IMG/VR virus record: IMGVR_UViG_3300042373_001362
Location: 64,001 to 128,000 of that record
Reading direction: 5' to 3' (one strand)
Source: a virus
Length of the DNA: 64,000 bases
Every line of letters starts with the position of its first letter. Position 1 is the stretch's first letter. This document shows positions 3 through 20,570 of the stretch, piece by piece. A program made the translations under genes and the position numbers. The notes below the pieces were generated by a model. That model searched no databases and had not been told where the DNA came from. It saw only the letters and a list, made by a program, of their open reading frames with translations.

Positions 3-3000
3 GAAGCAGCTAAGAGAATAATTGCAGACCCAGATACAGAGTATTCAGCAGATACCGGATGGCCGGTAGATGCAGGAAGACTTCTTGATTTCATCGAAAT
101 TGAGAATCCTCTTGGTGGACGTCCAAGCACTCTTCGTGATAAAGACGACGCACAGCTTATTGCAAGGGTTTTGGGTATACCAGTATCGGATGCTCAGGAC
201 ATGCTTGACGGAAAGCCTGTATACATTGCCAGCTCAACTGCGGCTGACATGTTTGACAACCTTTCAAGAAGCAGAGAGTACACAGCAAGCGTTGGTGGAT
301 TAAACGACGTAGCGAGAGTTTGGGGATTTGATGGCGCTCCAAAGTGGGTGCGTCATAGCGATATTGCTACTCCAGAATTTGACCTCGACGAAAACGACAG
401 AGTTAACTGGTCGCAGGTTAAGTGGGATGGACTTTCGAGGGCTGACTTTGATGCAGCAGTAAGAAGAGGGAATAACCCACCAGAACCCGTATACACATCA
501 CCTGTTGAGTTTTTCAATAGTGATGCAATCGCCAGTAACCCCAAGTGGGACGCTCGTGGTGGCTCATTCAGAAACCCAACTGTGGATGCTGAGTTCACTG
601 CAACACCAAAGAAGGTTGCTAGAGCTGAACAGCTGGAGCCAGAAAGATTTGTTTCTCAGGCAAGAGCCGGAGAAAGGGTTGCACGCGCTGACAAAGATTT
701 CATGGATGAATGGACCAACGGAAGTCATGGAATTGGTGCAGCGCAGCTTATGCAAATGCTTGGATTGGAAAGAGATTCAGAAGGCGACCGCATAAGCAGC
801 CAAGACGTAAGAAAGCTTCTTGATGAAATAAACAAGATTAAAGAAGAAGCTGGAAGCGGACTTGTTCCTGCTGCAAAGAGGGAAGACGGAAAATTTAAAG
901 AATCACTTGAGCTGGACACAAAGAAGTCTCCAATCAATGATGAAATAATGCACGCCCTCATTGTTTCTGGAAGATTCAAGAACATGAAAGAAGCGGTTGC
1001 TTCTCTTGGTGACCCAAGACTTGATTCTCTTGCTGCAGAATATGACTCCCGCATGCTTGTAGATGCAGCATTTATAAGAATCAAAGACCATTTAAACAAG
1101 GTTGGAGCAGCAGACCAAAAGAAGATTCTTTCTAAGGTAATCACTGCCACCCTTGGTCGCAAGACAACACTTGAATCTCGCGTACAGGAAGGCAGAGCAT
1201 CAATCAAGGGTGTAATGAATTCAGACGCAATGATTGGCGATGAAAAGCTTTCCGAAGTAATTGGCATGGTCAACGAGGTTCTTGATGCAAGGGGTCTTGA
1301 GACAATCGACAAGGATGCATTGTTCCCAAGGGACGAGGCAGGCGGATTTGTGAACAACTTGAGTGCTTCGGCTCCAGGCGCAACGAGGCTTGCTTCTGGT
1401 CAGAGGTTTGTAGCCAGAACCGCATCAAGCAGAAGAGCTGATGCCGGAATGGATGCTGCAGCAAGAAGAGCAACAGATAGGCCAACGTTCTCAAGCGGTG
1501 CAAAGCCAGCATTTAGGGACCCAGACGGAAAACTGAACGCCACAAACATGAGAGATGCTGCATCCGAAGCAACAATTCCAGAAGGAACAATGATAAGAAA
1601 AACTCCTGGCCAAAATATAGAAGACTTTGAAAAAGCAGTTAAGACGAGGGCCGAAATAGCAGAAACCCTAAACATAGATACTTCAGCAATAAATGGCTTT
1701 ACTGTCTACGACGTTATAGACGAGCTTAAAAAGGCAGGAATACCTGAAGATACCGCAGAAGACCTTGTCGATAAGCTTGTAGAACTAGATTTCTATATTG
1801 ATGCAATCGAGGAGAGATTCTCTGAAGCCAGAGAAATCATGGATGAAGCTATTGAAGAAGCTGAAGATGCTATGGACAAGATTGCGAAGCTAAGAAAAGA
1901 GCGTGCCGACATTATTAATAGGTACGGCGAAGAAGATGGACAGCCACTGCTTGAGGTTGTTGATGAAAAAATTAGCAGAGCGACAAAAAAGCTTGACGAT
2001 GCCTACCAAAGAGGTATCGGCAATGAGGATGCAAGAATGGGAACTCTCTATTCTCAGGTTGACGAAATTCTGAGCAATAATCGTGGATGGAGAGAGTATT
2101 CGCCATCCCCATGGGGAGATAGTACAAATCAGAACCTTGCTGCTCTTGAATTAGCAATTGCAAAAGCTGGCGGAGTAAAGAAAGCCGTACCAGTTACGGG
2201 AATAGATTTCGGAGTTCCAGAAGGCACAAGGCTTTCTTCAGGAAAAGCAGAAGAGTATTACCAAAACCTCACAAGCCACTTGATAAACATGATTGAAAAA
2301 TCACAAAAAGAAGGCGGTAAGTGGGAAGCACCATGGCATAAGGCTGGAAACCTTCCAAGAAATGCTTCTACAAAGAATATGTATTCGGGTGGAAACATCT
2401 TTGCTCTTATGCTTGCAGCCGAAGAAAAGGGCTTCACAACCTCTCACTGGGGTGGATTCCAGCAGTGGAAGAAGCTTGGAGGAAGCGTAAAGAAGGGTGA
2501 AAAGGCAACCATCATCCTCATGCCAAAGCAGATGTTTGGTGAGGAAATCGACCCAGACACAGGGCAGAAGGTTAGAAAGTCAAAGGGCGTATATTTTACG
2601 ACCGCACATGTTTTCAACCTTGACCAAGTTGAGGGAATTGACCGCGATGAGTTCTTGAAGCTGCCGACAGATGCTCTGACACCAGAGCAGAGAGTCACAA
2701 AGCTTGAAGACGCAATCAAGGAAGTTGGTGCAACAATCAAGACCGGAGATGGAAGTAGGGCCTACTACTCTCCGCGTGAAGACCATGTTGTGATGCCTCC
2801 ATTCGAACTGTTCAAGTCCCCAGAGGGATACTACGGAACACTCGCCCATGAGCTTGTTCACTGGACAGGGCATTCGTCAAGACTTGACAGAAAGAACATG
2901 AACCAGTTTGGTTCTCCTGACTATGCAAGAGAAGAGCTTATTGCTGAATTTGGCTCAGCTTTCCTGTTGGCAATGTTTGGTCTTTCTGCAGAACCAAGAG

Positions 3001-3374
3001 AAGACCATGCCCATTACTTGGCAAACTGGTTGCAGGTTCTTCGCGATGAGCCAAATGCTCTACAGGAAGCAGCAACGAAAGCTCAAGAAGCATCAAAAAT
3101 GCTTATCGACAAGATGAAGGCAGTTCTGGAAGAGATGGGCGAAACCGCATCTACTGCTGAGTCGACGGTAGAAGAAAAGAATGCAAATATTTTTACAGAC
3201 CCGCTTTACGGAATAAAGAATGGACTTGTTGAGTGGAGCAAAAACATTGAGAACGCTCCATATTTCATCAAATCCTTGACAGACCCTGATGAGAAATACG
3301 GAAATGTAAATAGAAGATGGGAAAGAATTGCGGAAGCAGCGCTATTCCTGAACGGAATAAACAACAAAATCTAG
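3..3374 (+). CDS. Large polyvalent (probably virion) protein, 5' partial; C-terminal ArdC-type antirestriction module (ssDNA-binding domain plus zincin-like domain)
   Basis: The frame is open from nt 3. The C-terminal ~300 aa carry ArdC hallmarks: WEAPW..PRN..T..YSGGN, WGGFQQWKKLGGSVKKGEKA, VFNLDQ, AYYSP..D.V.MP, HELVHWTGH.SRLDR, YAREELIAE. The module starts right after an RLSSG motif. Confidence 0.85.
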   Translation, partial: EAAKRIIADPDTEYSADTGWPVDAGRLLDFIEIENPLGGRPSTLRDKDDAQLIARVLGIPVSDAQDMLDGKPVYIASSTAADMFDNLSRSREYTASVGGLNDVARVWGFDGAPKWVRHSDIATPEFDLDENDRVNWSQVKWDGLSRADFDAAVRRGNNPPEPVYTSPVEFFNSDAIASNPKWDARGGSFRNPTVDAEFTATPKKVARAEQLEPERFVSQARAGERVARADKDFMDEWTNGSHGIGAAQLMQMLGLERDSEGDRISSQDVRKLLDEINKIKEEAGSGLVPAAKREDGKFKESLELDTKKSPINDEIMHALIVSGRFKNMKEAVASLGDPRLDSLAAEYDSRMLVDAAFIRIKDHLNKVGAADQKKILSKVITATLGRKTTLESRVQEGRASIKGVMNSDAMIGDEKLSEVIGMVNEVLDARGLETIDKDALFPRDEAGGFVNNLSASAPGATRLASGQRFVARTASSRRADAGMDAAARRATDRPTFSSGAKPAFRDPDGKLNATNMRDAASEATIPEGTMIRKTPGQNIEDFEKAVKTRAEIAETLNIDTSAINGFTVYDVIDELKKAGIPEDTAEDLVDKLVELDFYIDAIEERFSEAREIMDEAIEEAEDAMDKIAKLRKERADIINRYGEEDGQPLLEVVDEKISRATKKLDDAYQRGIGNEDARMGTLYSQVDEILSNNRGWREYSPSPWGDSTNQNLAALELAIAKAGGVKKAVPVTGIDFGVPEGTRLSSGKAEEYYQNLTSHLINMIEKSQKEGGKWEAPWHKAGNLPRNASTKNMYSGGNIFALMLAAEEKGFTTSHWGGFQQWKKLGGSVKKGEKATIILMPKQMFGEEIDPDTGQKVRKSKGVYFTTAHVFNLDQVEGIDRDEFLKLPTDALTPEQRVTKLEDAIKEVGATIKTGDGSRAYYSPREDHVVMPPFELFKSPEGYYGTLAHELVHWTGHSSRLDRKNMNQFGSPDYAREELIAEFGSAFLLAMFGLSAEPREDHAHYLANWLQVLRDEPNALQEAATKAQEASKMLIDKMKAVLEEMGETASTAESTVEEKNANIFTDPLYGIKNGLVEWSKNIENAPYFIKSLTDPDEKYGNVNRRWERIAEAALFLNGINNKI

Positions 3375-3465
3375 GAATAGTAATCAGTACATACACCGCA
3401 ATACTTACTCGAATGATACGTTTAGAGTATAATTTACGGTACTTACCAATTAGGAGTCATCTTTT

Positions 3466-5016
3466 ATGAACGATGAAATGAACATGAGCCTCAGCGTCAC
3501 AGGAGATGGCGAAGTTCTGAAGTGCGCAAAAATGGGCGCTGACGTCTCTGGCTGCGGGTACACGCCTGGTTCAAAGCTTTGTGCCAAATGTGGTGCGATG
3601 CCAACTCAGGTAAAAATCGTTCCCGTTGACGAACCAGAAGACGAGATGGAAGACGAGATGGAAGACGACGACCGTGCAATGCCTGCTCCAAGAATGGGCA
3701 ACAAGCCTGCGCCAGTCGCCATGGAAGACGCTGGCATGGAGCCAGAAGAGCTTGAAGTCGAAGACGAAGAAGACGAAGAGTCCATGGATGAAGAAAAAAC
3801 AGCTTATTACAAGAAGTATGGCTATGACCGCTACGTCAAGAAGTATGGCAAGAAGCCATGGATGATGGACGGAGAAGGTCCTGACGAAGAAGAGGATATG
3901 AGTGACGAAGAAAAGGCTCTCCTCTGGGCTCTCAACAAGAAGCGCAAGGCTCGTGGTCTGACGGCAACCCAAAACGGCATGGACGTAAAGGGTATGGGCG
4001 AAGAGTATTACGAAGAAGAAGACGAAGAAGACGAAGAAGAAATGTCTGAGGACATGCCAGAAGACGACGAAGTCGAAAAAATGGCAATGCTCGAAAGAAT
4101 GCGCAAGAAGCGCATTAAGTCACTGGGCATCACACCAGAGGCTGTAGGTCCTCGCGGCTATCTTTGCGCCATCGAAAGAAAGGCATACCCAGGTGGAGCG
4201 TCTGTTTGTGACGACTGCCCAGGCGGATGTGTTTCAGAAAAGGGACTTCCTGGCTTGCTTCATGTCGAAGGTCTTGCTGAGCAGATGTTTAAGGGAACAG
4301 TTCTTGACTCCGGATACTCAGCAAAAGCAGACATGTACGTCATTGATATCCAAACAAAAACTGGCGCAGTAAACGAAGTCTTCGTTGACGGAACAACTGC
4401 AGAGGTCATGGGTTTCCACAGGCTTGACAACTCCGTATTTGAGCAGAAGTCGGCACAAGACAGCATGCAGATGATTCAGTTCTATGAAGCAGCAGACATT
4501 GCTGTTAAGTCAATTGACGGCCACGTAATTGGTGTTGAGCCAGATTCTTTTGAAGGAATCGATGCATACGCAGTAGAAATTGATGGCTTCGACGGTAAGT
4601 CATATGACGTCTTTGTTTCTCTTGATGGCGAAGTTCTGGGCTACGATAAGTACGAGATGGACGAAGCAGAAGAGATTGAAGCAGAAGCTGCAGAAATTGC
4701 TCTGAAGCGTGCGTTCACTGAAGACCAGCGCACATCGATGGCTAAGGAAGGAACAGCAATGCCAGATGGTTCGTTCCCAATCAAGAACGAATCAGACTTG
4801 CGTAATGCAATCCAGGCCTACGGTCGTGCAAAGGACAAAGAAGCCGCAAAGCGCCACATCATGAAGCGTGCGAAAGAAATGGGCAAAGAGAACCTGATTC
4901 CTTCAAACTGGGTAATGGGTGGCGGAACCGAAAAGAAGAGTGACGTTGTTGACGCAAGTTTGATGGCTTCTCTTATCGAATTCGAGCTTCTTCAAGCCGA
5001 AACAGAAATCAACTAG
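3466..5016 (+). CDS. Acidic head-associated protein with Cys clusters, PepSY-like repeats and a C-terminal AMPDGSFPI...LRNAIQAYGRA domain
   Basis: 516 aa ORF with an SD (AGGAG). The C-terminal motif is typical of small domains fused to phage head/prohead proteins. Confidence 0.6.
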   Translation: MNDEMNMSLSVTGDGEVLKCAKMGADVSGCGYTPGSKLCAKCGAMPTQVKIVPVDEPEDEMEDEMEDDDRAMPAPRMGNKPAPVAMEDAGMEPEELEVEDEEDEESMDEEKTAYYKKYGYDRYVKKYGKKPWMMDGEGPDEEEDMSDEEKALLWALNKKRKARGLTATQNGMDVKGMGEEYYEEEDEEDEEEMSEDMPEDDEVEKMAMLERMRKKRIKSLGITPEAVGPRGYLCAIERKAYPGGASVCDDCPGGCVSEKGLPGLLHVEGLAEQMFKGTVLDSGYSAKADMYVIDIQTKTGAVNEVFVDGTTAEVMGFHRLDNSVFEQKSAQDSMQMIQFYEAADIAVKSIDGHVIGVEPDSFEGIDAYAVEIDGFDGKSYDVFVSLDGEVLGYDKYEMDEAEEIEAEAAEIALKRAFTEDQRTSMAKEGTAMPDGSFPIKNESDLRNAIQAYGRAKDKEAAKRHIMKRAKEMGKENLIPSNWVMGGGTEKKSDVVDASLMASLIEFELLQAETEIN

Positions 5017-5033
5017 AGCAAGGACTACCCGAC

Positions 5034-8000
5034 ATGACGGGTACGTTTAAAACGAAAACAAGATTTTATACCTCTTCGCAATTTGTGACCCCTATTTCAG
5101 GGCGCAAGCATTTCGTTGACTCCGCTATTGATTTCAGGCGAGGCCTTATTGAGAACTCATCAATGGCCGTTCTTAATGCCGATATCGCTGTTAAGGCTGC
5201 AATGGGAGCAGGGCTCTCTTCGTCTTCTGCTTCTGTCGGTCAAAAAGCACAGGGCGGCACATCTCCCGATTCTGACGGCAAAAAGCGCGTCAACAAAGGT
5301 GGCGTTCCTGGAATGGAAGAAGACGCCAACGGCTATAGGTACATGCCTGAAGCAACATGGGGTCCAGATAAGGTCCTAAATCTTTTTCCATCTCAAGAGA
5401 ATAGACAGTCAACAGACAGAACTCCAAACTTTGGATTCATCGACAAGGGTCCAGTCATCACTCCAGAACAATACGTTCAAAAAATGGAGAACGAACCACG
5501 AATCAGGATGTCCAAATACAAAATCAACTCTAGAACTGGTGAGCCTATAGAGGACACTGAAGTTGAATTTGACCGAATGAGATTCGGAAAAACTTTTGAT
5601 ATCAATCCAGATGTATCTGATGAAATATCTGAATCAGTTTCAGAAGAAATACAGGAAAAAAGTTTAGGAAGAAGTCTTAAAGAAAGAATGCCCGGCGGAA
5701 GCCTTATCGGAAGAGCTGCTGCTCGATTTGGCGTAATTATGGATGAACTTGGGAAGATGAGATGTCCTCCAGGAACTCCAGCCGCAAACCAATTTACCGA
5801 CATGACGGGTTCAAACTGTTTTGGCACATCGCCAGGAACGTTGATATCCGAAGCAATAAACCTTGCTCAAAACCTTGTTCCAGAAGACGATTCAAGACGT
5901 TCCTCTCGCCTCACAAGAGGCATTGTGAATCTTATGTTCGACTTAGAAAACGGTTTGTTTGGCAACAACGTCTGGTATCACGCAGACGGAACAAGAATGA
6001 AGCACGGCGAGTGGCGCAAGTTTCGCGAAGCTGGTGGTGTAGCAAAAAATGAACGCTGGATGGTCAATGGTGTTGAGAGAGTACTTGCCGAATTGGACTC
6101 TCAAGATGCACGAATGGAAGACCTTTATAGCAAGCTTGGCATAGACGTAAGCGATGTCAGAAAAGCAACAAACGAAGATGTATTTGAAGCTTTTCAAAAA
6201 CTCAAAGATTCAGGTGTAATTAGAGCTCAGCTTAGGGGTAGGCCATCGGCGGCTCAAGTTGAGGCGATGATGACTGCTCGCTTGCAAAACATGGACGCCC
6301 ACTGGATAGCAAGAAGCGCTGAAGAAAGAAAAATACTACTTGATATCGAGGTTAAGCGGTATAGGGAGCTAGAGAGAGCCCACATGGAGGCTTTTCTAGA
6401 TGAGGTTATTAAAAACCCAGAGCACATGAAAACTATCGGTGACGTCACTTTTAACCCAGCCGGAAGAGACCGCGCATCGTTTGGGATATCTAGGATAGGC
6501 CCAGATGGCAAGCCAGTTGGCTCTATAAATATAGACATACCGATGTCGCTCAAGTTTCAGGACTCAATGTTGCCAAATCTTTCTCCAGATGAGAGGCTAC
6601 GCATTTGGGCCGAAGGTGGACAGTCTGAAGTTTTGAGAGCAATGGCTGTTAAAGATTTCCTTGTTAATTCTAACTCTCATGCTGGACAGATGATAGCGAT
6701 GGTTGATGGTGGTCGTGGCCTTGGTCGACACGACATGAAACACGAAATAGCCCACTCAATCCAAGCCGTTGCGATATTCAACCATATGAAGAGAGAGCTA
6801 GACGCACGTGGCTCGCTCGTTATAGACAATGGAGAAAACAAAGCGCCCACCGTAATAACGGACGTAAGTCAACTTAACTCTGACATGCTTATGGCGTTGA
6901 TGGCTAGAGAAAACTTTATGGGCATTGACCTCAACTCACTAAAAGACCTCAGGTCTAGAGGTGACGTTGTTGCTTTTCTCGCTGGAAAATATATTGACGA
7001 AGTGCAGGCTCAATACGGAGGCATGAGAAGAGCGGCAGAAATAGGTGCAGAATTATGGTCACTCCGCAGTTCTGGTTTAATTTATGGCGATGACGTTGAT
7101 GCGGCTCTTGAATATATGGATGATGTTGCTTCTGGGGCGATTACAATTGATAGGACAGTTTCGGACGAAATTTTAAACAGAAGAGTTTATGAAGAATACC
7201 TCGATGGCTCCCGAAGGATACGCGAAGCCAGGGAGGAATCCGAGAGGCTCGCTGAAGAGGCTGAAGACGGGGAGTTTTTTGACGCGGAAGGAAGGGCGTC
7301 TGCCGAAAGGCTTTCTGCTGCCAGAGAAGCATACGCAGCAGAAAAACGCGCAGAAGTAAAAGAAGTAAAAGAAGCAGCAAAAACAATGTCTGAAGAAGAC
7401 ATGATTGACTTCCTCGCCGATGCGACAGAATCTTCTGATGTTCTGACAGAAATGCTTGATTCAGTAGAAGAAGCAGGTGAGGAACCTGACTGGATGTCTG
7501 TCATGGACAGAGACACTCTAGATGCAATGTCAAAAGCGGTTGTTGATGAATGGGTAAAAAGGTTTACCGTAAGAAGAAGCCCTGAGGCTATGGAAAAGCT
7601 TCAGAAAATGATTGACGACAAGCGTGAATCAAAAGGAACACTTTCTCCAGAAAAGGTTGAAGAGCGAAGATTTAGACAGTTCATGGAAGGTGCTGCTGAG
7701 CGGGCACAAGAAATGGGCCTAGAAGACCTTGTTCAGGCATACTCTGACTGGGAAGAGCTCGCTACTGGAGAAGGCGTTGATGGCGTCGACAGGGCACGCA
7801 GAAAAGAAATGCGTGATATGTACAGGGACGAGTACATAAAGAGAAGAACAGAAGGTCCTGACTCTGTTTCCAAAGAAGACGCACGCAAAGAATTCAACTC
7901 AAAGTTTAAGACACTTCGCAAGCCAAAGACAACGGCTGCTCGCGAAAGAGAAAAAAGAGCAAATCCGAAGAAGTTTAAAACTCATAACGGTAAAGATGGA

Positions 8001-11000
8001 GCACGAACTTTTGCTACCGCAGAAAGAGAAAGACTTCTCGAAGGTGCAACAACAGAAGAAAAAATTGCTCTTGTCGAAATGGGAAGCGGTGAAACTGACG
8101 TAATCAACATGATGAATGGCAGTTCCGAAGGAATGGCATCTGCTAGAGCTATCCAGAGAAGAAACACCAGACTTAAGAAAAATGGAGTTCTTCCTGATGA
8201 ATTAAATCATCATGAGGCGTCAATAGAAGAACAGGTAGAAAACTTCTACATACCACTTCTTGAATTGATGGACAAGTCCTCCCTGTCTCAAACTGTAGAA
8301 ATGCACATCGACAGCAATGATGATGCTATGAAGTACGTGGAAGACCTTCTTAATGGCGGAAGTCCAGAATTCACTGTCGGTATTGGAACCGGAACACTGG
8401 TTACAAGCAATACAGACTTTTCAGACGGCAAAAAGATAGTTATCCGCGTCCCAGAGGGAAGTAGGGCTGTTTTCCCGGACTGGTCTTTTTATTCTGACTC
8501 CGACAACGGTGAGCAGAAAATGATGATTCCACCGTCAAAGTTTCACCTTGTTGAAATTCGGGATGACGGAACAGTCGTTCTTGAGGTTGGAGAACAAAAA
8601 GGAACCGAAGAAGTTCTCAAAGATGCGATAGAGGAGATATCCCCTAGCGCTGGTGACAGTGACTTTGCATACAGAGAAGGCCTCAAGAAGAAGGTTGGCA
8701 GGGTAGTCGACAAGAGAATTGCGGAGCGTCGCAGACAGGGTATGTTTGACCCAGAAAAGCGTTCTCCAGTTGAAGAAGAAAGATTCTCTGCTAGTGCAGA
8801 CAACGCTGCTGCTGCTGCCGGTTTTGAACCAGACCTTCCACCAAGGCCAACCACTCCACCGCCAACAGGCGATTCACCCAACAAGCAGAGAGGAGTGAAA
8901 AGAAGACAGGCTTCAGCTGCGATTGACCGCGTAGTAAATCCAAACAATAGAACTGAAGACTCATGGCAGAAGGAAAGAAGAGCTAGACAAGAGCTGGATG
9001 CAATACACGCATACATAACCGGTGAAGGCGCATATCAAAATAGAACCAATCGAGTCGGTCGTAAAATAGCTCAAATGATGGAAGAAGCCTTCGGCACATC
9101 AAACATAAACGAACTAACCGAAGACCAAAAGTACGACTTAATTGATTTAATTTCTCAAAGATTAGATGCCAAGCTAAGAATAGACAACAACGGCTCTTAT
9201 GACGACAGAAGAAGCTTATCGCAATTCAAAAGCAGAATTCAAGACCACATTGACATTTCAAAAATGCTTGATTCAAATGACTTTAGCGACCCATATGGCA
9301 GCGATGGCTATGACATCGATTGGTCATCAATAGACACAACGCCTGATAGGCCTGAAAGATTCTCTTCCGGAGCCAAATGGGGGCAGATGCCTTCTAGCAA
9401 CGAACAAATAGATGGTCTTCTTGATGCATCAAACAATGATGGATTTAATGAGATTTATGGTTCACCACAAACTCGTGAAGAGCGAATTGCTCAGATGGTT
9501 GAAATGCAATCCGAAGTTCTCACTTCATTGAGAGAAATGATTGACAATGTTCCCGGCTCTGGAGACGAATTAGGACTTGAAGCCTCAAGCATTGACCCAG
9601 TAATCATGGACCTCATCAAGAACTCATCCGACGAAGAGATATATCAGATTATTTCAAAGGCCGCTATGGACTTGCATCAAAGTTTTGACTCACGACCACG
9701 TGTACGAATGAGACAAGATGAGCTTGATAACTTCCTGAAGACTGGAAGATACGGAAGAGAGTCTTCTTTTGATACCGATGCCAATAGATTTTCTTCAGGC
9801 AGGATAAGCAAAGGCATCAGGGCTAGAGCCAAAGATAAAGCAATAGAAATGATTGCTGAAAGAATTGGCAAAGATGAGGACTCACGTGAAATAGCAGAGA
9901 TGGTCCTAGACACTGTTTCTGCTCTTAAGTACGGCCCAGAAGCCGCCCTGACGCGCTTGGCGATAGACCTCGGAAGACGAGGAAGCCGAGATATTGCTGA
10001 AAGAACATTAGAAGAACTTGTTAGTAGAGGGAAACTCACAGACGAGCAAGCGAAATCTATATTGTCAAAAATGGACAGGTTTGCCCCAGACGGTCTTCCA
10101 GAACCAATCAAGAGAGGCGTCGGTTCGGCTGTTCGTGCCGCAGCAGACGCAATCGATACTCCAGAGAACAGAGAAAGACTGGACAGGGCTCGTGAAGCAG
10201 CAGGAGAAGCTGCAGGCAGAGCCAGGGAAGCTGTCGGTGAAGGTGCAAGAAACGTAGCCGAACGAGGTCGTGAGAGACTTAGAAGACTTAGGGAAAGAGA
10301 CGACAGAGGCGAAATTCCATCTTCTCCAGAAGATGTTCCATTTGGCGACTTTGACCCAGCGGATACAATTTTTTCAAGCGGCAGAAGACTCGACAGAAGA
10401 GTTGCTAGCTCGGAAGCTGGCCGTGAAAGAATCATGGATGGGGCAAAGAAGACCAGAACAAGATTCAGCAGCGGAGAGACGCCAGAACTTAAAGAGCCAA
10501 AGAAGCCAAGCAGGCCACGAGAGCCAGATAATGGCCCCATGACTGGAAAGTTCATCGACATCTTCAAGGGTGTTAAGTCATATAAAGAGATGCTCGATAG
10601 ATACAACGAGCAAGAAGTTATCTTCTTTGACTACGAGACAACTGGCTTTGACCCCAAAGTTGAAAGACCCGTTCAAATTGGTGCAGTAAAGATGAAGGGC
10701 GGAAAAGTTGTTGAAAGGTTCAATATCTTCGTAAACCCAGAAAAAGAACTTAGCGATTGGTCAAAAGCAAACCTCGTAGATGCTGACGGTAATCCACTAA
10801 CAAACGATTGGCTAAATAATCAGCCATCAATAGCAGAAGCACACCAACAACTTATTGATTTCTTTGGGCCTGATGCACTTCTTGGTGGACAGTTCACCCC
10901 GTTTGACCTTGGGTTCCTTGAAGAGTCACTCAAGAATGCCGGAATAGAATGGACTCCTGCTGGCGTTATTGACAGCAAGGCGCTTGCAGACGAGCTACTT

Positions 11001-14000
11001 CCAAAGTGGACACCAGAAACCGGCGATGGACCATTTGCTTTGAACGACGACGGCAGTAAATATGCTACTAACAGCCTTGGGCCCCTATCTGAGTACCTTG
11101 GCGTGGACCTCAAGGCATGGCATACGGCAGATGCTGACTCTGAGGCATCTGCAATGATTGTCCAGAAGATTCTTGAGCGTGCGGCCGAAAGAGACGACAC
11201 TCCAAAGCATCTGCTAAAAGTTGAAAACATGCCTGCAATCGTCAACGAGCGTAGAGCAAAGCACAAGTTGGCAATGGATAAGTACTTTGCTGACATGAAG
11301 CAGTACAAGGCAGACATGGAAGCCTATAACGCTTCTAAATCTGACTCAGGAGGCGGAACAAGATTCTCTTCCGGCGGGAAAGCCGACCCCATGGTCATCA
11401 AGACAAATGGTCGATACGGCGACACCAGCGGAAAGAGCGATTTTAGCTCAGATGAGCTAAAGACAATAGACGAAATAACCGAGCGTCTATCCAACTCTGA
11501 TTTGAATCTGGCGTGGTTTTCGTTAGAGAACGAAGACGGAACAGCCACATCTTCGCCATTGATTAACTTTAACGGCAGGCCAATAGCTGTTGTTCGTATT
11601 GGAGAACAGAACATACCGTTTTATAGAAGTACCGGAAGTGGCGGCAAAGACCCAAGCAGGTTTGTTCCAAACAAATGGTATCCATTCTGGGGGTATAACG
11701 CGTCTGGTCAGTGGTTTATAAAAAACGAAGAAATGGAAAACTATTACGGGATACCAGAGCTGGAAGAAATATCTAAACAACTGGACACCCTTACGGATGG
11801 TCTTCCAAAGTTAAAGGCATCAACAGAGTGGCGTAGCGTCGCAAACATAGAGACCGGCCAAATGGATGATGATTTTAGAGGTTTAATAAATGGAACTGCA
11901 TTTAGAAATGCTGACTCGCTTTATAACAGACGTGACATAACAAATCACATTACTGTATCTAAGAAAAAGACGAGAGACGAAATAAAGTTAATGAAGAGAG
12001 ATGCCTTAAAGGCCTCAAGAGATGGCAATACTCCTCCAGGGGTTGATAGGTTCTCTTCTGGAGAAACATATAGAGAACTGGTTAGAACTGAAGGAAGGCC
12101 ATCAGAAAAGCAAAAAGAAGCAATTTCTGATGTTAAGGACATTCTAAGAAATAACGAGTTTGGCATTGCTGACGAGTTTGACGATGAATACGAAGTAGTA
12201 GACAGTCCAAGAAGGGCTGAACTGAAGGCGAAAGTTGCTGAAAAGATTTCAGAAGCTTTCTCTCACGACATAGAAGCAAGAGAAGATGTCGTTGTTACCG
12301 CTAAGAATGGCGAAAAAATAAACCTAGGAAAAGATTTCAAGATTGAAATAAGCGAAATATCTGTAGATGTTGACACTTATGACGAAGAAACTTTAGAAGC
12401 AATCAAAGAGCAACAGTTTTACGATACTCCTACTGGCTCAATGAGCGACTCCCCAAGCACTTTAATATCGATGAAGATATCAATAAAGCCAAAAGACGAG
12501 GAAGCAGCAAAGCGCCTTGAGCAGGCAGGTATCCCGGAGCTTCTATTGCCAGACTATTTTGACGGAACCCCAGGGGCCGACGATGTAAGGGTTGGATTCT
12601 CATCAAGAAACTTAGTAATAAATGGCAACGAAATGCATGCAACGCATGAGTCACTATTCCTCAGGGATGAAGCTCAAGGGAAAGGCATAGGAAGTCTATT
12701 CAACGCTAAGAATGAAGGAGTCTATGAAGAGCTTGGCGTTAGAAGAATCCTCACCAACGGTCAATCCTCTGAACTTGGAGAATCTGAAGGTGGAACACAT
12801 TGGCCAAGAAATGGTTTTACGTGGGCCGGAGAACAGAGCAAACAGGACTTTATTAAGGTTATAGACCGAGCCCTGAAGAGAAGAAAGAGCAAATTCTCTG
12901 AAGAAGAATACGCAAGAATAAGTTCTTTATATAGAAAGAACCCCTCAACTAGGAAGTTCGAAACAGACGCATCAGCAGAAGAGCTTGTCGATTTTGCTTA
13001 TGCAGATGAACTGTTTAAAGAACAGGATGCAAGCTTCATGTTTAAGCGCGACATTGAGCTCGTATCTGCCGGTAGTCCGAGATTCTCTTCAGGTGGAACA
13101 AGGTTCTCTTCTGGGGCGTCTGGAGCAGCAAGAGCTGGAATAAACAGAGATATATATGAAAGAGAAGGGGGCAGACCCTCGGACAAGCTGGAGCCATCAT
13201 CTTTGTTAAGAAAATCATCAGACGGAAAAGACTCTTCTGCTCTAGAAATAAATGGCAAAACATATGACATTAAGTCACTCAAAAACGAAGACGGAAACTT
13301 TTCTGTATTTATAGAAAATGAAGACGGTAAAAAAATTGCTGAGATTGTTTTAAACCAGGAGCCAACATCTTATGCATCTATAGTTTCAATATCATCGGAA
13401 GAAGATGCACAAAAAGCTGGAGCGCTAGAAGGAATTTTAGACTCTTTGTTAATAAATAATCCTGACGCAACGTTTAGGAAAACAGAAAAAACAGCAGAAT
13501 GGTTCAACTACGTAACCAATGGCATGGCTGACTATGGGCTTCAGGGAAGCAGACAGGTTGGTTTCTCCGGAAAGTTCAGCGATGGAGAAAGAGCTACACC
13601 CGATGGCGACTATACGTTAAGTTCGTTTTTAAGATTTAAGCCGAAAAGAAATTCATCTAAAACGCTAAAATCCGATAAAAATTCTTTTTCAGAGTATTCA
13701 TATAAGTGGAACGGGGAAATATTTGATATCGGAGGAGAGTCATTAGTATTTGGCGCACCTGAAGATGCGGAATTTGAAGATAGTTCTATAAAAAAGATAA
13801 ATCTGAATCCATTTGAAATACTGGGTCTTGAGCCAACTTCAGAAGAAGGCAGAGATGCTGCCATGAAATGGATGTCAGCAATACACGGCGCATCAATATC
13901 CATAATATCTGACGGTCAAGAATTTAAACCTAGCACCTATGTTAGTGCTCTTCTTTACGCCTCTTCAAAGGGGGATAAGAAAGCAGCAGAAGAATTAGAC

Positions 14001-15506
14001 GCATTGGCAAAACGTTCAAGTGATTGGCTTGCAAAGCTAAAAGAAAAAGAACAAAAGATTGAAGAAACTGGAAATGCTTTGCCGCTCAATTCTAGGCTTG
14101 TTCACCAAACGTCATACAAGCCAACAATAGATAAAGACGGATATCTAGTCCTTCGACCACTAGAGGACTTTCCACAAAAATCGAACGATGGCTCTGACGT
14201 AACTGTTAACAGAACAACGCTGCATTTAGCAATCAATCACCTTGCAGAAGGTCATATGTTTAGGCAGGAAACACAAGGTAAGTCTTACATTGTAATGATG
14301 CCTCTTGACTCTTTTATGGACCAAAACCCAGATAGCCTCGAAAATCTTTCAATAGTTGACACTGCAGCAACACCCCCACCAGGAGATGGCTTGCGCATGG
14401 CTCCAGGAACATTCAAAGTTATAGAGGTCGATGAGGGCGGGAATGGTCGAAGGATGGTTGAAGATGCTCTCAGAGAAGATGGCGTAGGCGTTCTAGTCGG
14501 TGGTGACAGGTCTTCCGGAACTCCAGGAGCAGATAAAGCAGCCGAAGCTAGGGCGCGGATGCTTGGAGTGTCTAATAACGTTGCGTCTGACCTGCCGTTA
14601 ACAGTGTTTGAAACTATTAACAGGACAAGCATATATGAGCAGTCTCGCTATGCCGATGTTCCTGCAACTACCGAAATTATGCAAACTGCTAGCAAAAATA
14701 CACTCATGAGAATGGCCAACAGAAGAGAAAACGCATGGACAGCATTTGATAAAGAAGTAGTAGCAACAGACTTTTTGTCTAGCGGTGAAGTAAAAGCCCC
14801 AGCAGAACCAAGAACACGGAAGCCAAAGCGAGTAAAGAAGTATAAGGGCTACGACCTTAACGAGCCAGACAATCCGGCTCCTAAGCCGGGAGAATTCCCT
14901 GATGATGTTGTTGAGGCTGCAACAAAACATAGGGCAGAGATTGAAAAGGTAGAAGCGGAAATAACAAAGCTTCTCATTGACTTGGCCGAAAAGAATAAAG
15001 CCCGTATGGAAGGTCTTGATTTTAGGCTTAAAGCTCTGAAGTCACTAATGCGCAAGATAGCTGCAGAAAAAGACAGCGAGCATGGTGGAGACGCAGAAAA
15101 AGCAGCGAAGTCCATGTCTGATGTTGTTAGGTACACGATGTCCTACGGCCCAGAAGATTACGTTGCTGGCGTAAAAGACGTTGTAGCAGAAATGCAGAAA
15201 CTTGGGTATGACCTTAGAATTAAGAACTACTGGAAGGGCGGCGACCCATACCAGGGAATCAACGTTGCCGTAACACACCCCGATGGAACAAAGTTTGAAC
15301 TGCAATTCCATACTCCACAATCTGTGGCTGAGAAAGAAAAAATTCACGTAATGTATGAGGAGTACAGAACATCAAAAGACCCAGGTCAGAGATGGGAGTT
15401 GTACCAGCGGATGGTTGAAATAGCTAACCAAATAGGTGTACCTATTCCACCAGAAGAACTGCTAACTATCGGCCAAGTGAAAGAACAGCCATTCCAGGCG
15501 GAGTAA
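5034..15506 (+). CDS. Giant 3490 aa polyvalent protein: zincin HExxH, degenerate ART-like, DEDDh 3'-5' exonuclease, GNAT-like and C-terminal RelA/SpoT nucleotidyltransferase modules
   Basis: HEIAH at 6741-6755. IVIRVPEGSRAVF..EQKMMIPP (~8440-8540). FFDYETTG...HTADADS (~10620-11140). EAQGKGIG..HWPRNGF (~12670-12820). RLKALKSL.RKI..DVVRYT..KNYW..YQGINV..FELQFHT (~15020-15320). Confidence 0.8.
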   Translation: MTGTFKTKTRFYTSSQFVTPISGRKHFVDSAIDFRRGLIENSSMAVLNADIAVKAAMGAGLSSSSASVGQKAQGGTSPDSDGKKRVNKGGVPGMEEDANGYRYMPEATWGPDKVLNLFPSQENRQSTDRTPNFGFIDKGPVITPEQYVQKMENEPRIRMSKYKINSRTGEPIEDTEVEFDRMRFGKTFDINPDVSDEISESVSEEIQEKSLGRSLKERMPGGSLIGRAAARFGVIMDELGKMRCPPGTPAANQFTDMTGSNCFGTSPGTLISEAINLAQNLVPEDDSRRSSRLTRGIVNLMFDLENGLFGNNVWYHADGTRMKHGEWRKFREAGGVAKNERWMVNGVERVLAELDSQDARMEDLYSKLGIDVSDVRKATNEDVFEAFQKLKDSGVIRAQLRGRPSAAQVEAMMTARLQNMDAHWIARSAEERKILLDIEVKRYRELERAHMEAFLDEVIKNPEHMKTIGDVTFNPAGRDRASFGISRIGPDGKPVGSINIDIPMSLKFQDSMLPNLSPDERLRIWAEGGQSEVLRAMAVKDFLVNSNSHAGQMIAMVDGGRGLGRHDMKHEIAHSIQAVAIFNHMKRELDARGSLVIDNGENKAPTVITDVSQLNSDMLMALMARENFMGIDLNSLKDLRSRGDVVAFLAGKYIDEVQAQYGGMRRAAEIGAELWSLRSSGLIYGDDVDAALEYMDDVASGAITIDRTVSDEILNRRVYEEYLDGSRRIREAREESERLAEEAEDGEFFDAEGRASAERLSAAREAYAAEKRAEVKEVKEAAKTMSEEDMIDFLADATESSDVLTEMLDSVEEAGEEPDWMSVMDRDTLDAMSKAVVDEWVKRFTVRRSPEAMEKLQKMIDDKRESKGTLSPEKVEERRFRQFMEGAAERAQEMGLEDLVQAYSDWEELATGEGVDGVDRARRKEMRDMYRDEYIKRRTEGPDSVSKEDARKEFNSKFKTLRKPKTTAAREREKRANPKKFKTHNGKDGARTFATAERERLLEGATTEEKIALVEMGSGETDVINMMNGSSEGMASARAIQRRNTRLKKNGVLPDELNHHEASIEEQVENFYIPLLELMDKSSLSQTVEMHIDSNDDAMKYVEDLLNGGSPEFTVGIGTGTLVTSNTDFSDGKKIVIRVPEGSRAVFPDWSFYSDSDNGEQKMMIPPSKFHLVEIRDDGTVVLEVGEQKGTEEVLKDAIEEISPSAGDSDFAYREGLKKKVGRVVDKRIAERRRQGMFDPEKRSPVEEERFSASADNAAAAAGFEPDLPPRPTTPPPTGDSPNKQRGVKRRQASAAIDRVVNPNNRTEDSWQKERRARQELDAIHAYITGEGAYQNRTNRVGRKIAQMMEEAFGTSNINELTEDQKYDLIDLISQRLDAKLRIDNNGSYDDRRSLSQFKSRIQDHIDISKMLDSNDFSDPYGSDGYDIDWSSIDTTPDRPERFSSGAKWGQMPSSNEQIDGLLDASNNDGFNEIYGSPQTREERIAQMVEMQSEVLTSLREMIDNVPGSGDELGLEASSIDPVIMDLIKNSSDEEIYQIISKAAMDLHQSFDSRPRVRMRQDELDNFLKTGRYGRESSFDTDANRFSSGRISKGIRARAKDKAIEMIAERIGKDEDSREIAEMVLDTVSALKYGPEAALTRLAIDLGRRGSRDIAERTLEELVSRGKLTDEQAKSILSKMDRFAPDGLPEPIKRGVGSAVRAAADAIDTPENRERLDRAREAAGEAAGRAREAVGEGARNVAERGRERLRRLRERDDRGEIPSSPEDVPFGDFDPADTIFSSGRRLDRRVASSEAGRERIMDGAKKTRTRFSSGETPELKEPKKPSRPREPDNGPMTGKFIDIFKGVKSYKEMLDRYNEQEVIFFDYETTGFDPKVERPVQIGAVKMKGGKVVERFNIFVNPEKELSDWSKANLVDADGNPLTNDWLNNQPSIAEAHQQLIDFFGPDALLGGQFTPFDLGFLEESLKNAGIEWTPAGVIDSKALADELLPKWTPETGDGPFALNDDGSKYATNSLGPLSEYLGVDLKAWHTADADSEASAMIVQKILERAAERDDTPKHLLKVENMPAIVNERRAKHKLAMDKYFADMKQYKADMEAYNASKSDSGGGTRFSSGGKADPMVIKTNGRYGDTSGKSDFSSDELKTIDEITERLSNSDLNLAWFSLENEDGTATSSPLINFNGRPIAVVRIGEQNIPFYRSTGSGGKDPSRFVPNKWYPFWGYNASGQWFIKNEEMENYYGIPELEEISKQLDTLTDGLPKLKASTEWRSVANIETGQMDDDFRGLINGTAFRNADSLYNRRDITNHITVSKKKTRDEIKLMKRDALKASRDGNTPPGVDRFSSGETYRELVRTEGRPSEKQKEAISDVKDILRNNEFGIADEFDDEYEVVDSPRRAELKAKVAEKISEAFSHDIEAREDVVVTAKNGEKINLGKDFKIEISEISVDVDTYDEETLEAIKEQQFYDTPTGSMSDSPSTLISMKISIKPKDEEAAKRLEQAGIPELLLPDYFDGTPGADDVRVGFSSRNLVINGNEMHATHESLFLRDEAQGKGIGSLFNAKNEGVYEELGVRRILTNGQSSELGESEGGTHWPRNGFTWAGEQSKQDFIKVIDRALKRRKSKFSEEEYARISSLYRKNPSTRKFETDASAEELVDFAYADELFKEQDASFMFKRDIELVSAGSPRFSSGGTRFSSGASGAARAGINRDIYEREGGRPSDKLEPSSLLRKSSDGKDSSALEINGKTYDIKSLKNEDGNFSVFIENEDGKKIAEIVLNQEPTSYASIVSISSEEDAQKAGALEGILDSLLINNPDATFRKTEKTAEWFNYVTNGMADYGLQGSRQVGFSGKFSDGERATPDGDYTLSSFLRFKPKRNSSKTLKSDKNSFSEYSYKWNGEIFDIGGESLVFGAPEDAEFEDSSIKKINLNPFEILGLEPTSEEGRDAAMKWMSAIHGASISIISDGQEFKPSTYVSALLYASSKGDKKAAEELDALAKRSSDWLAKLKEKEQKIEETGNALPLNSRLVHQTSYKPTIDKDGYLVLRPLEDFPQKSNDGSDVTVNRTTLHLAINHLAEGHMFRQETQGKSYIVMMPLDSFMDQNPDSLENLSIVDTAATPPPGDGLRMAPGTFKVIEVDEGGNGRRMVEDALREDGVGVLVGGDRSSGTPGADKAAEARARMLGVSNNVASDLPLTVFETINRTSIYEQSRYADVPATTEIMQTASKNTLMRMANRRENAWTAFDKEVVATDFLSSGEVKAPAEPRTRKPKRVKKYKGYDLNEPDNPAPKPGEFPDDVVEAATKHRAEIEKVEAEITKLLIDLAEKNKARMEGLDFRLKALKSLMRKIAAEKDSEHGGDAEKAAKSMSDVVRYTMSYGPEDYVAGVKDVVAEMQKLGYDLRIKNYWKGGDPYQGINVAVTHPDGTKFELQFHTPQSVAEKEKIHVMYEEYRTSKDPGQRWELYQRMVEIANQIGVPIPPEELLTIGQVKEQPFQAE

Positions 15507-15507
15507 A

Positions 15508-15747
15508 ATGAAGAAAAGATTTTTCACAAAAGGTAAGAACACCAAATTATTCGTTCTTTTTATTGACGATGCAAAAAAAGAGATGTACGAGTATGTCTTG
15601 ACAGAGGATGGACTAGAAGAGACATCAGACCTTATGAAAATAATGATTGATGGGTTTCAGGGCATAGAAGAAATAAGCGAACAGAAGGCATCAGAACTTT
15701 ATAAAGACAAAGGCTTTAAAAAAGCCATGAATAGCCTTGGTAAGTAA
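15508..15747 (+). CDS. Small protein directly after the RelA/SpoT module (possible immunity protein)
   Basis: 79 aa, starting 1 nt after the stop of the giant ORF. Function is inferred from position only. Confidence 0.55.
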   Translation: MKKRFFTKGKNTKLFVLFIDDAKKEMYEYVLTEDGLEETSDLMKIMIDGFQGIEEISEQKASELYKDKGFKKAMNSLGK

Positions 15748-15748
15748 A

Positions 15749-16750
15749 ATGAGCGAAGAATCTACAAAAAAGATTGCCGACGTAGCAAGAAGAGCCTATG
15801 AAACACGCATTGGCATACAGCCAGACGTCGACGACTCTGCCAGGCCTGTTAGTGGCTATTTGGTCAATAGGTCACAGGACACAAAAAGAAGAGCAATGGC
15901 AAAACTGGAAAATCCAGAAGGAGCTACTGCCCCGTTTGAGACAGTAGAAGGAGACCCGTCTGGCACCGACGCTATATCTCAGGGAGAAATAGAGATAATT
16001 CTTAAGCCTGGCGTTGCCAAGAAAACCTCCTACACTCGCGGCGATGCTGTGTCTACCGGCGGAAGGGCCGTAGCAATGAACTCCGACGCGCAAGAAGACA
16101 TACTTAATGCGATAATCCACGATGATGGACCAAATGCCAAAAAGACAATGGCCAGGACGATGATTGGTCTTCTAAAATCGTCTCTAGACGAAGATTATAC
16201 AGGGGTTACTTCTCTCCCTGATAATGCAGGAAGACTTACGCCTGTAGACAAAGAAGACCCGTCTGCATCGCAAAGAAAAAATGAGTCGTTTGAAGCAATG
16301 ATTCTAGGTGGGTTTGAAATAGACGATGTTGAGGGTGTTCATTTCCCTTACTCAAAAATCAAACAAATAGCTGAAGATGAAGATATTTCTGACTTCTTCA
16401 ACAACAACTTTGTTATGTCTCGCCTAAAAACTCTCAACAATAACGCTGAACAAGCAAGGGTTTTTTCAACCCTTGAATCAGCGGACAAGATAAGAACGGA
16501 ATCTGTAGTCGCTCTCAAGGAATATAGGGCAGCAAAGCGCATTAAGAAAATGTACGAATCTGGAGGGGTTGGATATGTGAAGATATCTCACCCAAAGGGA
16601 GTCAACATAGAAGACCCAAGGACGTATGACAGAAACGCATCTCCTCTTGACAATGTTGAATCAATACTAAAAGCAAAGATAGCCAAAGAACTGGATTCAG
16701 AAATTCAGAAAATATTTAACAAAAAGCCTGGAATGAAGAAGGAAAAGTAA
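15749..16750 (+). CDS. Hypothetical protein, DUF3626-like C-terminal half
   Basis: R.AYE.RIG..RPVSGYL, ILKPGVAKKTSYTRGD and FEAMILGG...DVEGV resemble DUF3626 motifs. Confidence 0.5.
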   Translation: MSEESTKKIADVARRAYETRIGIQPDVDDSARPVSGYLVNRSQDTKRRAMAKLENPEGATAPFETVEGDPSGTDAISQGEIEIILKPGVAKKTSYTRGDAVSTGGRAVAMNSDAQEDILNAIIHDDGPNAKKTMARTMIGLLKSSLDEDYTGVTSLPDNAGRLTPVDKEDPSASQRKNESFEAMILGGFEIDDVEGVHFPYSKIKQIAEDEDISDFFNNNFVMSRLKTLNNNAEQARVFSTLESADKIRTESVVALKEYRAAKRIKKMYESGGVGYVKISHPKGVNIEDPRTYDRNASPLDNVESILKAKIAKELDSEIQKIFNKKPGMKKEK

Positions 16751-19854: not shown

Positions 19855-20570
19855 TGCAGTTATTTTCTGTTGTTTATGACCCAAGTACGTCTTCTCCGTT
19901 TGGTCTAGTCGTTGAGGATGCAAGCGGAGAAAGGCATGCCTATGGTCTTTCTGAAGCTGGACGCTATTGGGAAAAATCTGGAAATACTTCTATCCCAGAA
20001 AGAATGATTACAACAGGTTTTGCTCCATATACAAAGTCCGCACAGGAGGCTCTATCTTTGGCAATAACTGGCGATGTCGTGGTATCTCTGTCAGAGATAA
20101 AAGAATATGTCAATCCTGAAATGGTTTACGCGGGAAGAACAATTAGAAAAAATACAAAGCAGCCTTCTGGTAGGACTTTTTCTATATCTAAATCTTATGG
20201 AAAATCAAAAGTTCAAATCGCTGAGTATTTAGCAGAAAAGTTTAAGTCATCCATAAAGCAGGCAACAGTAGTTTATGAAGTCAAATCTGCGAACATAGGC
20301 TTTAGCGAAAAGATAAATACACCTAAAACCGTAAGTTCTGAACCCGGCAAAGTATGGCTGGTTGATAGGGTTGGGTCGTTTCTGGGAAGAAGCGCTTCTC
20401 GTAGAATGGGTGAAAAAATAAACTCTTCTTATAGAGATAGTTACTCTGAAAATAACAGAATAAACAGAAGAGTAAAGTCTCTTATCGGAATTGAAGAAAT
20501 AGACCTAAGCCACTATCCAGTACCTGAAAGAATGAATATTTCTGGCATTGAGAGAACTAGGAGAATCTGA
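19851..20570 (+). CDS. Hypothetical protein
   Basis: 239 aa, overlapping both neighbours. Confidence 0.6.
   Translation: MMQLFSVVYDPSTSSPFGLVVEDASGERHAYGLSEAGRYWEKSGNTSIPERMITTGFAPYTKSAQEALSLAITGDVVVSLSEIKEYVNPEMVYAGRTIRKNTKQPSGRTFSISKSYGKSKVQIAEYLAEKFKSSIKQATVVYEVKSANIGFSEKINTPKTVSSEPGKVWLVDRVGSFLGRSASRRMGEKINSSYRDSYSENNRINRRVKSLIGIEEIDLSHYPVPERMNISGIERTRRI

Follow-up and report, generated by a model that had tools for sequence, protein, structure and literature searches.

A lineage-specific pentapeptide at the module boundaries of giant head-region proteins in an uncultured phage: a probable cleavage signal

Introduction

Two giant proteins of an uncultured phage, here called A and B, are punctuated by a short motif, x[FL]SSG, which is the subject of this analysis. 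The phage is known from an IMG/VR record (IMGVR_UViG_3300042373_001362) of 148,355 bp with direct terminal repeats, and the window is the stretch of 64,000 nucleotides that runs from base 64001 to base 128000 of that record. Protein A is an open frame of 3,967 codons (genome 55471-67374); its first ATG lies 8.5 kb upstream of the window, and its C-terminal 1,123 codons appear within the window as the open reading frame (ORF) 3-3374. Protein B corresponds to ORF 5034-15506 and has 3,490 residues; both frames lie on the plus strand. The motif is selected at the protein level, lies in linkers, delimits swappable cassettes, stands at a gene boundary in sibling genomes and co-varies by lineage. Judged from these sequence patterns, it is probably an endoproteolytic cleavage site between modules, through which one gene would give rise to many proteins.

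Should the motif prove to be a cutting signal, phage ORFs as large as 3,000-7,000 codons would encode not single proteins but, much like operons, series of a dozen or more distinct enzymes, which are probably injected. Such genes could be split at the motif for annotation, exact termini could be predicted, and modules of no assigned function could be tested individually.

Results

A five-residue motif recurs between the modules of proteins A and B

Protein A begins with an S78 prohead protease, which is followed by a conserved unit of ~600 residues and then by ~15 motif-delimited modules, among them a UvrD-like helicase, ArdC-N and MPTase. Protein B consists of a conserved N-terminal unit of ~1,250 residues and 9-10 motif-delimited modules. 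The two proteins together hold 24 x[FL]SSG sites, 15 in A (the part outside the window included) and 9 in B. Exact RFSSG is found 14 times, where composition predicts 0.012 (log10 P = -37.7, head-region proteins pooled), and FSSG 18 times, where composition predicts 0.18. Outside these proteins, the frequency of the motif tetrapeptide in the 148-kb genome is close to that predicted by chance, the one exception being a pair of sites in the tape measure. Every motif listed in an earlier sequence-only reading of the window was recovered at its position, including the degenerate RLASG at 1386 (Table 1). A literature search for the RFSSG, GLSSG and LSSG motifs found no relevant paper.

The DNA beneath the sites is not conserved. 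The 24 coding 15-mers are all distinct, with serine written by both TCN and AGY codons, the third codon positions hold 0.2-0.9 bit, and there is no information in the DNA on either side. It is therefore the peptide that is under selection, as the earlier reading had argued from codon variation within the window. A DNA-level repeat or recombination site was considered as an origin of the motif and rejected on these same data.

Some of the junction motifs stand in tandem, 7 residues apart at 13080-13115 and 19 residues apart in A (sites 2765/2784, genome 63763/63820), and other neighbouring sites are separated by spacers of 31-53 residues. These arrangements may represent double sites, or what is left of modules since lost. 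Close to the N-terminus of B there is also a near-motif, GLSSS (B residues 60-64), which together with the RFSAS at 8781 brackets the conserved unit of that protein.

The motif lies in predicted linkers between folded modules

All sites lie outside the Pfam envelopes, which are those of S78, UvrD/UvrD_C, ArdC-N, MPTase-PolyVal and RNase_T. The 12 residues on each side of the sites are 16-18% hydrophobic, compared with a background of 27% (p ~5e-5 in each protein). The RNase_T domain of B (residues 1863-2041) sits between the motif sites at 1811 and 2111, and ArdC-N follows an RLSSG by 7 residues. To this extent the motifs do bracket recognisable modules, as had been proposed, but two of the modules named at the time fared less well: the GNAT found no match in a Pfam search of each B module, even at E<=1, and RelA/SpoT stayed below threshold in Pfam, with a weak RelA_SpoT lead from a search of the ESM Atlas.

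An AlphaFold2 model was made of B 1420-2359 from a 45-row alignment. In this model the exonuclease has a predicted local distance difference test score (pLDDT) of >90 from about model residue 401 to 685, and is bracketed by motifs within ~5-20 residues. The six motifs of the modelled segment (model residues 23-27, 166-170, 360-364, 391-395, 691-695 and 920-924) all overlap or abut segments with pLDDT <50, and five are clearly coil. Residues with pLDDT <50 make up 34% of the model, and a rough chance estimate for six out of six is 0.002. Modules without deep alignments were modelled poorly, so the model provides a strong test of linker position around the exonuclease only. The motif is accordingly placed by prediction in flexible linkers between folded modules, the location that the sequence-only reading had expected an AlphaFold model to give.

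Homology blocks of relatives start and stop on the motif

Relatives were collected by a protease-domain scan of viral contigs, which returned 584 related stretches. In a BLAST comparison of A with the fetched relatives, coverage changes in steps at the motifs, and 9 of the 15 sites in A are within 3 residues of the end of a homology block (binomial p ~1e-6). In B, the blocks common to two related loci, L122 and L124, comprise residues 1441-2114 and 3248-3487, both of which start and stop on motifs. The stretch of B between these blocks amounts to 1,134 residues (three modules), in place of which the relatives carry one or two unrelated modules. Homologues of A and B do, then, exchange modules at the motif, as the earlier reading had considered possible. 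Its suggestion of a module-shuffling joint is borne out for the swaps but not for a joint at the level of DNA, given the unconserved DNA of the sites. Probably a junction has to retain the motif in order to function, which would be why the swaps respect it. The first junction after the conserved unit of A, aligned across lineages, is too variable to prove positional homology.

The exonuclease module travels widely. When B 1420-2359 is compared with 1.8 billion representative proteins, the module is found in more than 80 proteins of 1,500-7,000 residues, at varying positions. Many of these proteins, including nearly all of those with a punctuating motif, have their own lineage's motif on both sides of the module. 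There is also a second class, of 4,000-7,000 residues (P0025, P0026, P0027, P0033, P0034, P0057 and others), which contains the exonuclease module and has no punctuating motif. In this motif-free class the module stands between conserved flanks, with 'PPKGDKPALHRP' before it and 'AAAWNCGG' after it, and the class looks like a different, non-modular architecture.

The protein p337, encoded immediately downstream of B, is a separate gene in this phage and also in the related genomes G005, G010 and G015. Protein B of G002 and G003 ends in a p337 module, which follows KFSSG or VFSSG by 10-15 residues. This equivalence of gene and module, a comparison of sequences, is the best indirect evidence that the modules may act as separate proteins. 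As a C-terminal domain of B, p337 is fused in G001, G002, G003 and G008, and in G001 protein B is cargo-free, consisting of the N-terminal unit and p337 alone. It would therefore seem that the cargo arrays were inserted between two conserved domains of a single ancestral protein.

The motif varies by lineage in head proteins and in the tape measure

Motif variants were identified by de novo word enrichment in ten related genomes. This phage and G005 use R[FL]SSG, G002 uses KLSSG, G003 [RK]LSSG, and G010 and G015 GLSSG. The variants of the other lineages depart further: (P)LGSRS in G001, GL[A]S[SR]T in G004, SGL[RS]S in G018, GGMRS.R in G020 and RGM.S in G008. A hydrophobic residue, L, F or M, is the element common to these lineage motifs. 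A wider protein library adds the variants [LIV][ST]G.M[SAT], FASR and GSKS. Within one genome, A and B are marked by the same variant.

Two further proteins encoded downstream of B, p239 and p384, belong to the same pattern in some lineages. In G004, G008, G018 and G020 the homologues of p239 and p384 have long C-terminal extensions that also contain the lineage motif, and with these extensions the p384 homologues measure 564-879 residues. In this phage p239 shows weak homology (E 1e-5) to the N-terminal 217 residues of a post-portal protein of G004, which has 2,207 residues and ~10 junction motifs. By its match to this motif-rich protein, p239 would therefore be a third 'anchor' for cargo arrays.

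The protein in the tape-measure position has 1,703 residues and is encoded outside the window, on the minus strand (genome 33792-38903; locus L003:3792-8903). Its two motif sites are KLSSG at residue 42 and RFSSG at residue 747, the second followed by a glycine-rich run. The N-terminal site is kept in position among relatives, as RLSSG in G005, KFSSG in G003 and RFSSG in G002. Its sequence is GLASSS in G004, of the GLASST lineage, where a second site, GLASST, stands at 669. The tape measure is not a cassette array, and its sites therefore argue for a trans-acting, lineage-specific reader and against a passive scar. The same conclusion is suggested by the motif changing in step in several head proteins and in the tape measure, which points to a reader acting in trans.

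A zincin-like unit, a prohead protease and a movable peptidase are candidate readers

The conserved unit of B contains a zincin-like domain that is present in all 11 lineages compared. HExxH is found in 11 of 11 lineages and a Q three residues later in 10 of 11, at 18-46% identity, and a downstream Glu ~95 residues on is invariant across 13 aligned sequences. By sequence, the unit thus has the HExxH and the later third ligand of zincin-like metallopeptidases. Its AlphaFold2 model (mean pLDDT 70.7) consists of three strands followed by a helix with HExxH, and in a full structural scan with VIA-align the top match is the catalytic domain of anthrax lethal factor (Z 10.5, root-mean-square deviation 4.0, 183 residues aligned). 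The rate at which the unit diverges matches that of the motif. At P1', zincins usually prefer a hydrophobic residue. Among the library matches, S78 or zincin units are found in 9 of 150, and tblastn returned no homologue of the B unit in cultured phages. This HExxH unit is tentatively named here as a possible reader. Against it stand the moderate fold match, with Z 10.5 for a largely helical model, and the lack of any match for the unit by Foldseek against the PDB, by phmmer and hmmsearch against PDB sequences or in Pfam; moreover, we know of no phage zincin that processes a polyprotein at many sites.

Alternatively, cleavage could fall to the S78 protease at the N-terminus of A, which would read the motif inside the procapsid, with the zincin-like unit serving another role. 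Precedent speaks for this protease, since T4 gp21 and the phiKZ and SPN3US proteases act on internal head proteins. The domain spans A residues 28-171 (PF04586 Peptidase_S78, 1.1e-10, 42.3 bits against a cut-off of 21). Its WGH, SIGY and PVLHGAN positions, which we take to be the S78 catalytic motifs, are invariant in a 15-sequence alignment. The cargo is fused to this domain in cis, the genes concerned lie between those of the portal and the capsid protein, and motif sites occur in the extensions of the head-module proteins p384 and p239. In the capsid protein, QL[ST]SR, which is not the full motif, precedes SIGEMF in all LSSG-type lineages, this phage having QLSSR just before the N-arm, and GLGSS is found in G018, of the GL.S type; the LSSR of this phage, short of the full motif, is a possible extra site. 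Assemblin-fold proteases follow a P3-x-P1 rule, which the hydrophobic-x-Ser core of the motif may recall by analogy.

The S78 protease is slightly less likely as a reader than the zincin-like unit, and several points weigh against it. Between lineages with radically different motifs, the domain keeps 72-91% identity, and to our knowledge the rules of prohead proteases are constant over far larger distances. At the capsid junction nothing motif-like is present in four lineages, G001, G004, G008 and G020, so that LSS or GLGSS is a feature of some lineages only, while the SIGE.F junction itself is constant. The start [ST][IL]GEMF, which presumably corresponds to the HK97 Lys103/Ser104 maturation site, is constant as far as Gordonia phage Chidiebere. 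The [ST]-G-x-M class of motifs does not fit a hydrophobic-x-Ser core, and the tape measure, which also carries sites, assembles outside the procapsid and is not part of the head.

The third candidate, MPTase-PolyVal, is a movable module at the C-terminus of A, and its position within A varies. It is missing from G004 (91% complete), a motif-rich relative with ~30 motif sites, and is therefore dispensable; its candidacy as an obligatory cutter is weakened accordingly. The cutters nominated in the sequence-only reading were the prohead protease, the zincin with HEIAH at 6741 and ORF 31813. The first is now located at the N-terminus of A, and the HEIAH belongs to a conserved HExxHxxQ...E in a predicted zincin-like fold, but ORF 31813 (363 residues) shows a weak Peptidase_Mx match (E 0.0018, below cut-off) and lies among replication genes, outside the head module. 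It is highly improbable that MPTase-PolyVal or another phage peptidase is the reader. We lean slightly towards a division of labour, with the zincin acting on the lineage-specific junctions and the S78 protease on ordinary capsid maturation.

Discussion

In the proposed mechanism, x[FL]SSG would serve as a junction signal between independently folding cargo modules. The modules would be appended to conserved 'anchor' proteins of the head module: A, with its S78 unit, B, with its zincin-like unit, and, in other lineages, the homologues of p239 and p384. A peptidase encoded by the phage would read the site in trans, its specificity drifting from lineage to lineage. Extended to a large group of uncultured ~150-kb phages, the proposal becomes a junction code, in which a fast-evolving peptidase and a five-residue site co-evolve, site-flanked modules can be plugged in behind several head anchors, carried into the capsid and released separately, and the tape measure is cut by the same enzyme. 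In this complete form the proposal is a serious possibility that stops somewhat short of being probable. That the chains are cut, at which bond and by which enzyme, and that the pieces are packaged and injected, is what we infer from the patterns described above. Several points weigh against cleavage. The case for it is built wholly from sequence, all of the co-variation of the motif is confounded by shared ancestry, and the tape measure of G001 has no motif at the N-terminal site.

The motif could also remain uncut and act as a docking peptide for the capsid interior, the portal, a chaperone or the anchor units, by which the giant chains would be spread out or ordered as assembly proceeds, in the manner of encapsulin cargo-loading peptides. 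Its short, repeated, linker-embedded and lineage-specific character is typical of binding motifs, the capsid has the HK97 fold, and cleavage is itself a deduction. Encapsulin peptides are terminal, however, whereas this motif is internal and repeated and is present in the tape measure as well; docking to the capsid does not readily account for the tape-measure sites or for the tandem sites spaced 7 and 19 residues from each other. The p337 module exists as an independent gene in sibling genomes, and a helicase, an exonuclease, an ArdC and an alarmone-synthetase-like module are unlikely to work as one 400-kDa chain. Docking without cleavage is for these reasons improbable.

A host factor, either a protease or a modifying enzyme, might read the motif after injection, the variants then reflecting different hosts. 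This would fit the differences between related phages and would explain sites in both the tape measure and the head cargo, since both enter the host. It is nonetheless very unlikely, as close relatives whose capsid proteins are 82-95% identical already differ in the residue before the hydrophobic one (R, K or G), and the phage encodes three peptidase-like domains beside the substrates. A passive linker remnant or recombination scar, copied along with the cassettes and without any biochemical reader, agrees with cassette exchange at the motif and with short spacers that resemble scars of lost modules, but is scarcely credible in view of the unconserved DNA with its 24 different 15-mers, the single variant common to the whole site set of a genome, and the motif kept at a positionally conserved site of the non-modular tape measure, where it changes with the lineage.

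Cleavage between modules, if correct, has to be placed among known processing systems. The closest are the polyvalent proteins of phages and conjugative elements, for which processing by zincin-like or assemblin-like peptidases was predicted (Iyer, Burroughs, Anand, de Souza, Aravind 2017, PMC5512222). Proteins A and B resemble these in being giant multidomain phage proteins with anti-host and DNA-processing domains in a virion-gene context. Unrelated domains are joined in one chain, with Peptidase_S78, UvrD helicase, ArdC-N and MPTase-PolyVal in A, and RNase_T and unassigned modules in B. The hallmark domains ArdC-N (PF08401, 5.8e-26) and MPTase-PolyVal (PF18818, 4.7e-44) both score above curated cut-offs, which confirms the polyvalent character that the sequence-only reading had recognised. 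The assemblin-like peptidases of polyvalent proteins are always C-terminal (PMC5512222), whereas the S78 protease of this phage is at the N-terminus of A. The text of that paper makes no mention of linkers, and we found no defined junction or cleavage motif in it. New relative to that account is one pentapeptide, specific to the lineage, which recurs at every module boundary, co-varies between proteins and also occurs in the tape measure.

In the prohead-protease systems of T4, phiKZ and SPN3US (T4 gp21 with IPI-III/Alt, phiKZ gp175, SPN3US gp245; PMC10052503, PMC5694885), as proposed here, one short consensus motif is shared by many head-internal proteins that are cut, and the host receives the cargo. 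In SPN3US, gp245 cleaves both head and ejection proteins behind AXE (PMC10052503). The T4 and phiKZ systems are similar to it. In those phages each cargo protein has its own gene with an N-terminal propeptide, whereas here 10-25 modules share one ORF, the two ORFs measuring 3,490 and 3,967 codons, and the motif recurs at internal positions. The motif of those systems is constant over wide evolutionary distances, and here it differs between close relatives. Their protease is of another family, whereas that of this phage is of the S78/HK97 type and the reader is perhaps not the head protease at all.

RNA-virus polyproteins, such as those processed by picornavirus 3C and potyvirus NIa, are also alike in having one ORF, a protease in the chain and a virus-specific short site at the junctions. 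They share no homology with A and B, which are encoded by a dsDNA tailed phage and contain accessory, swappable modules in place of core replication proteins, and for which cleavage is deduced from the sequence. With A and B, a polyprotein strategy like that of RNA viruses would extend to double-stranded DNA tailed phages, where it would serve injected anti-host enzymes as a cassette platform.

The nearest cultured relatives are Gordonia myophages of the genus Chidieberevirus, with a capsid protein 48% identical over 99% of its length and an S78 domain ~39% identical. They share the tail module of sheath, tube and chaperone and the [ST][IL]GEMF start of the capsid N-arm. Their protease is an ordinary 452-residue protein with an acidic tail, encoded directly upstream of the capsid gene. 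No giant ORF is annotated in the 18.6-kb stretch examined around the Chidieberevirus protease, and no search for motif arrays was made in these phages.

Cleavage at the motif, if true, would explain the exchange of counter-defence modules as cassettes among such phages. It would also provide a concrete, mutable site and three candidate enzymes for the processing of polyvalent proteins, which was predicted in 2017 without known sites. Pairs of protease and site that differ between close relatives would be a natural source of orthogonal cleavage systems.

Gene neighbourhood and features along the window

The portal gene lies directly upstream of A (phrog_2662, 4.7e-60). Downstream of B follow, in order, p337, three small or medium ORFs, p239, p384 and an HK97-type major capsid protein (Phage_capsid match 1.5e-41) with an N-terminal extension of ~160 residues. 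The order portal, A, B, capsid is kept in 10 relatives, and A and B are encoded among virion genes. Sheath, tube and tail chaperone are encoded elsewhere in the genome, on the minus strand, together with the tape-measure-position protein; the phage is therefore contractile-tailed. The coordinates of the features in the window are collected in Table 1.

Table 1. Junction motifs, domains and neighbouring genes in the window (positions are those of the window).
Feature	Position	Strand	Evidence or remark
RLASG, degenerate junction motif in A	1386..1400	+	sequence context
TFSSG junction motif in A	1485..1499	+	sequence
RLSSG junction motif in A	2229..2243	+	7 residues before ArdC-N; homology block shared with the loci of 24 relatives starts here
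ArdC-N, single-stranded-DNA-binding anti-restriction domain	2253..2615	+	PF08401, 5.8e-26
MPTase-PolyVal, zincin-like metallopeptidase	2700..3077	+	PF18818, 4.7e-44
p516, acidic 516-residue protein between A and B	3466..5016	+	motif-free; in all 10 relatives examined
GLSSS near-motif in B	5211..5225		B residues 60-64
Zincin-like domain of B conserved unit (B residues 380-703)	6171..7142	+	HEIAH at 6741-6755
RFSAS, degenerate junction motif, end of B conserved unit	8781..8795	+	sequence
RFSSG junction	9357..9371	+	L122/L124 homology block starts here; coil, pLDDT <50
RFSSG junction	9786..9800	+	coil, pLDDT <50
IFSSG junction	10368..10382	+	coil, pLDDT <50; next site 31 residues on
RFSSG junction	10461..10475	+	immediately N-terminal to exonuclease module
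DEDDh exonuclease	10620..11156	+	RNase_T PF00929, 8.6e-18; pLDDT >90
RFSSG junction	11361..11375	+	5 residues past last exonuclease helix; homology with close relatives stops here
RFSSG junction	12048..12062	+	sequence, model
Tandem RFSSG-GT-RFSSG	13080..13115	+	two motifs 7 residues apart
FLSSG junction	14772..14786	+	last L122/L124 homology block starts exactly here
C-terminal module of B, weak RelA/SpoT-like nucleotidyltransferase	14790..15503	+	Pfam E 0.0026, 18.5 bits against cut-off 27; PHROG 2859 6.4e-39
p337	15737..16750	+	separate gene here
p239	19851..20570		weakly homologous to G004 post-portal protein
p384	20570..21724		DUF3721 repeats
LSSR in major capsid protein (gene 21888-23255)	22167..22178	+	4 residues before conserved SIGEMF start of HK97-like N-arm
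ORF 31813	31813..32904		weak Peptidase_Mx match

A megablast search of the first 20 kb against cultured phages gave no match. The acidic protein p516, between A and B, is EDEE-rich with Cys-rich ends, and its composition resembles that of the acidic tail of the Gordonia phage protease gp34; by composition it may be a scaffold candidate. The p384 protein contains two DUF3721 repeats ('WMPC'), between which there are three proline-rich repeats (GDGVGPPKPKN).

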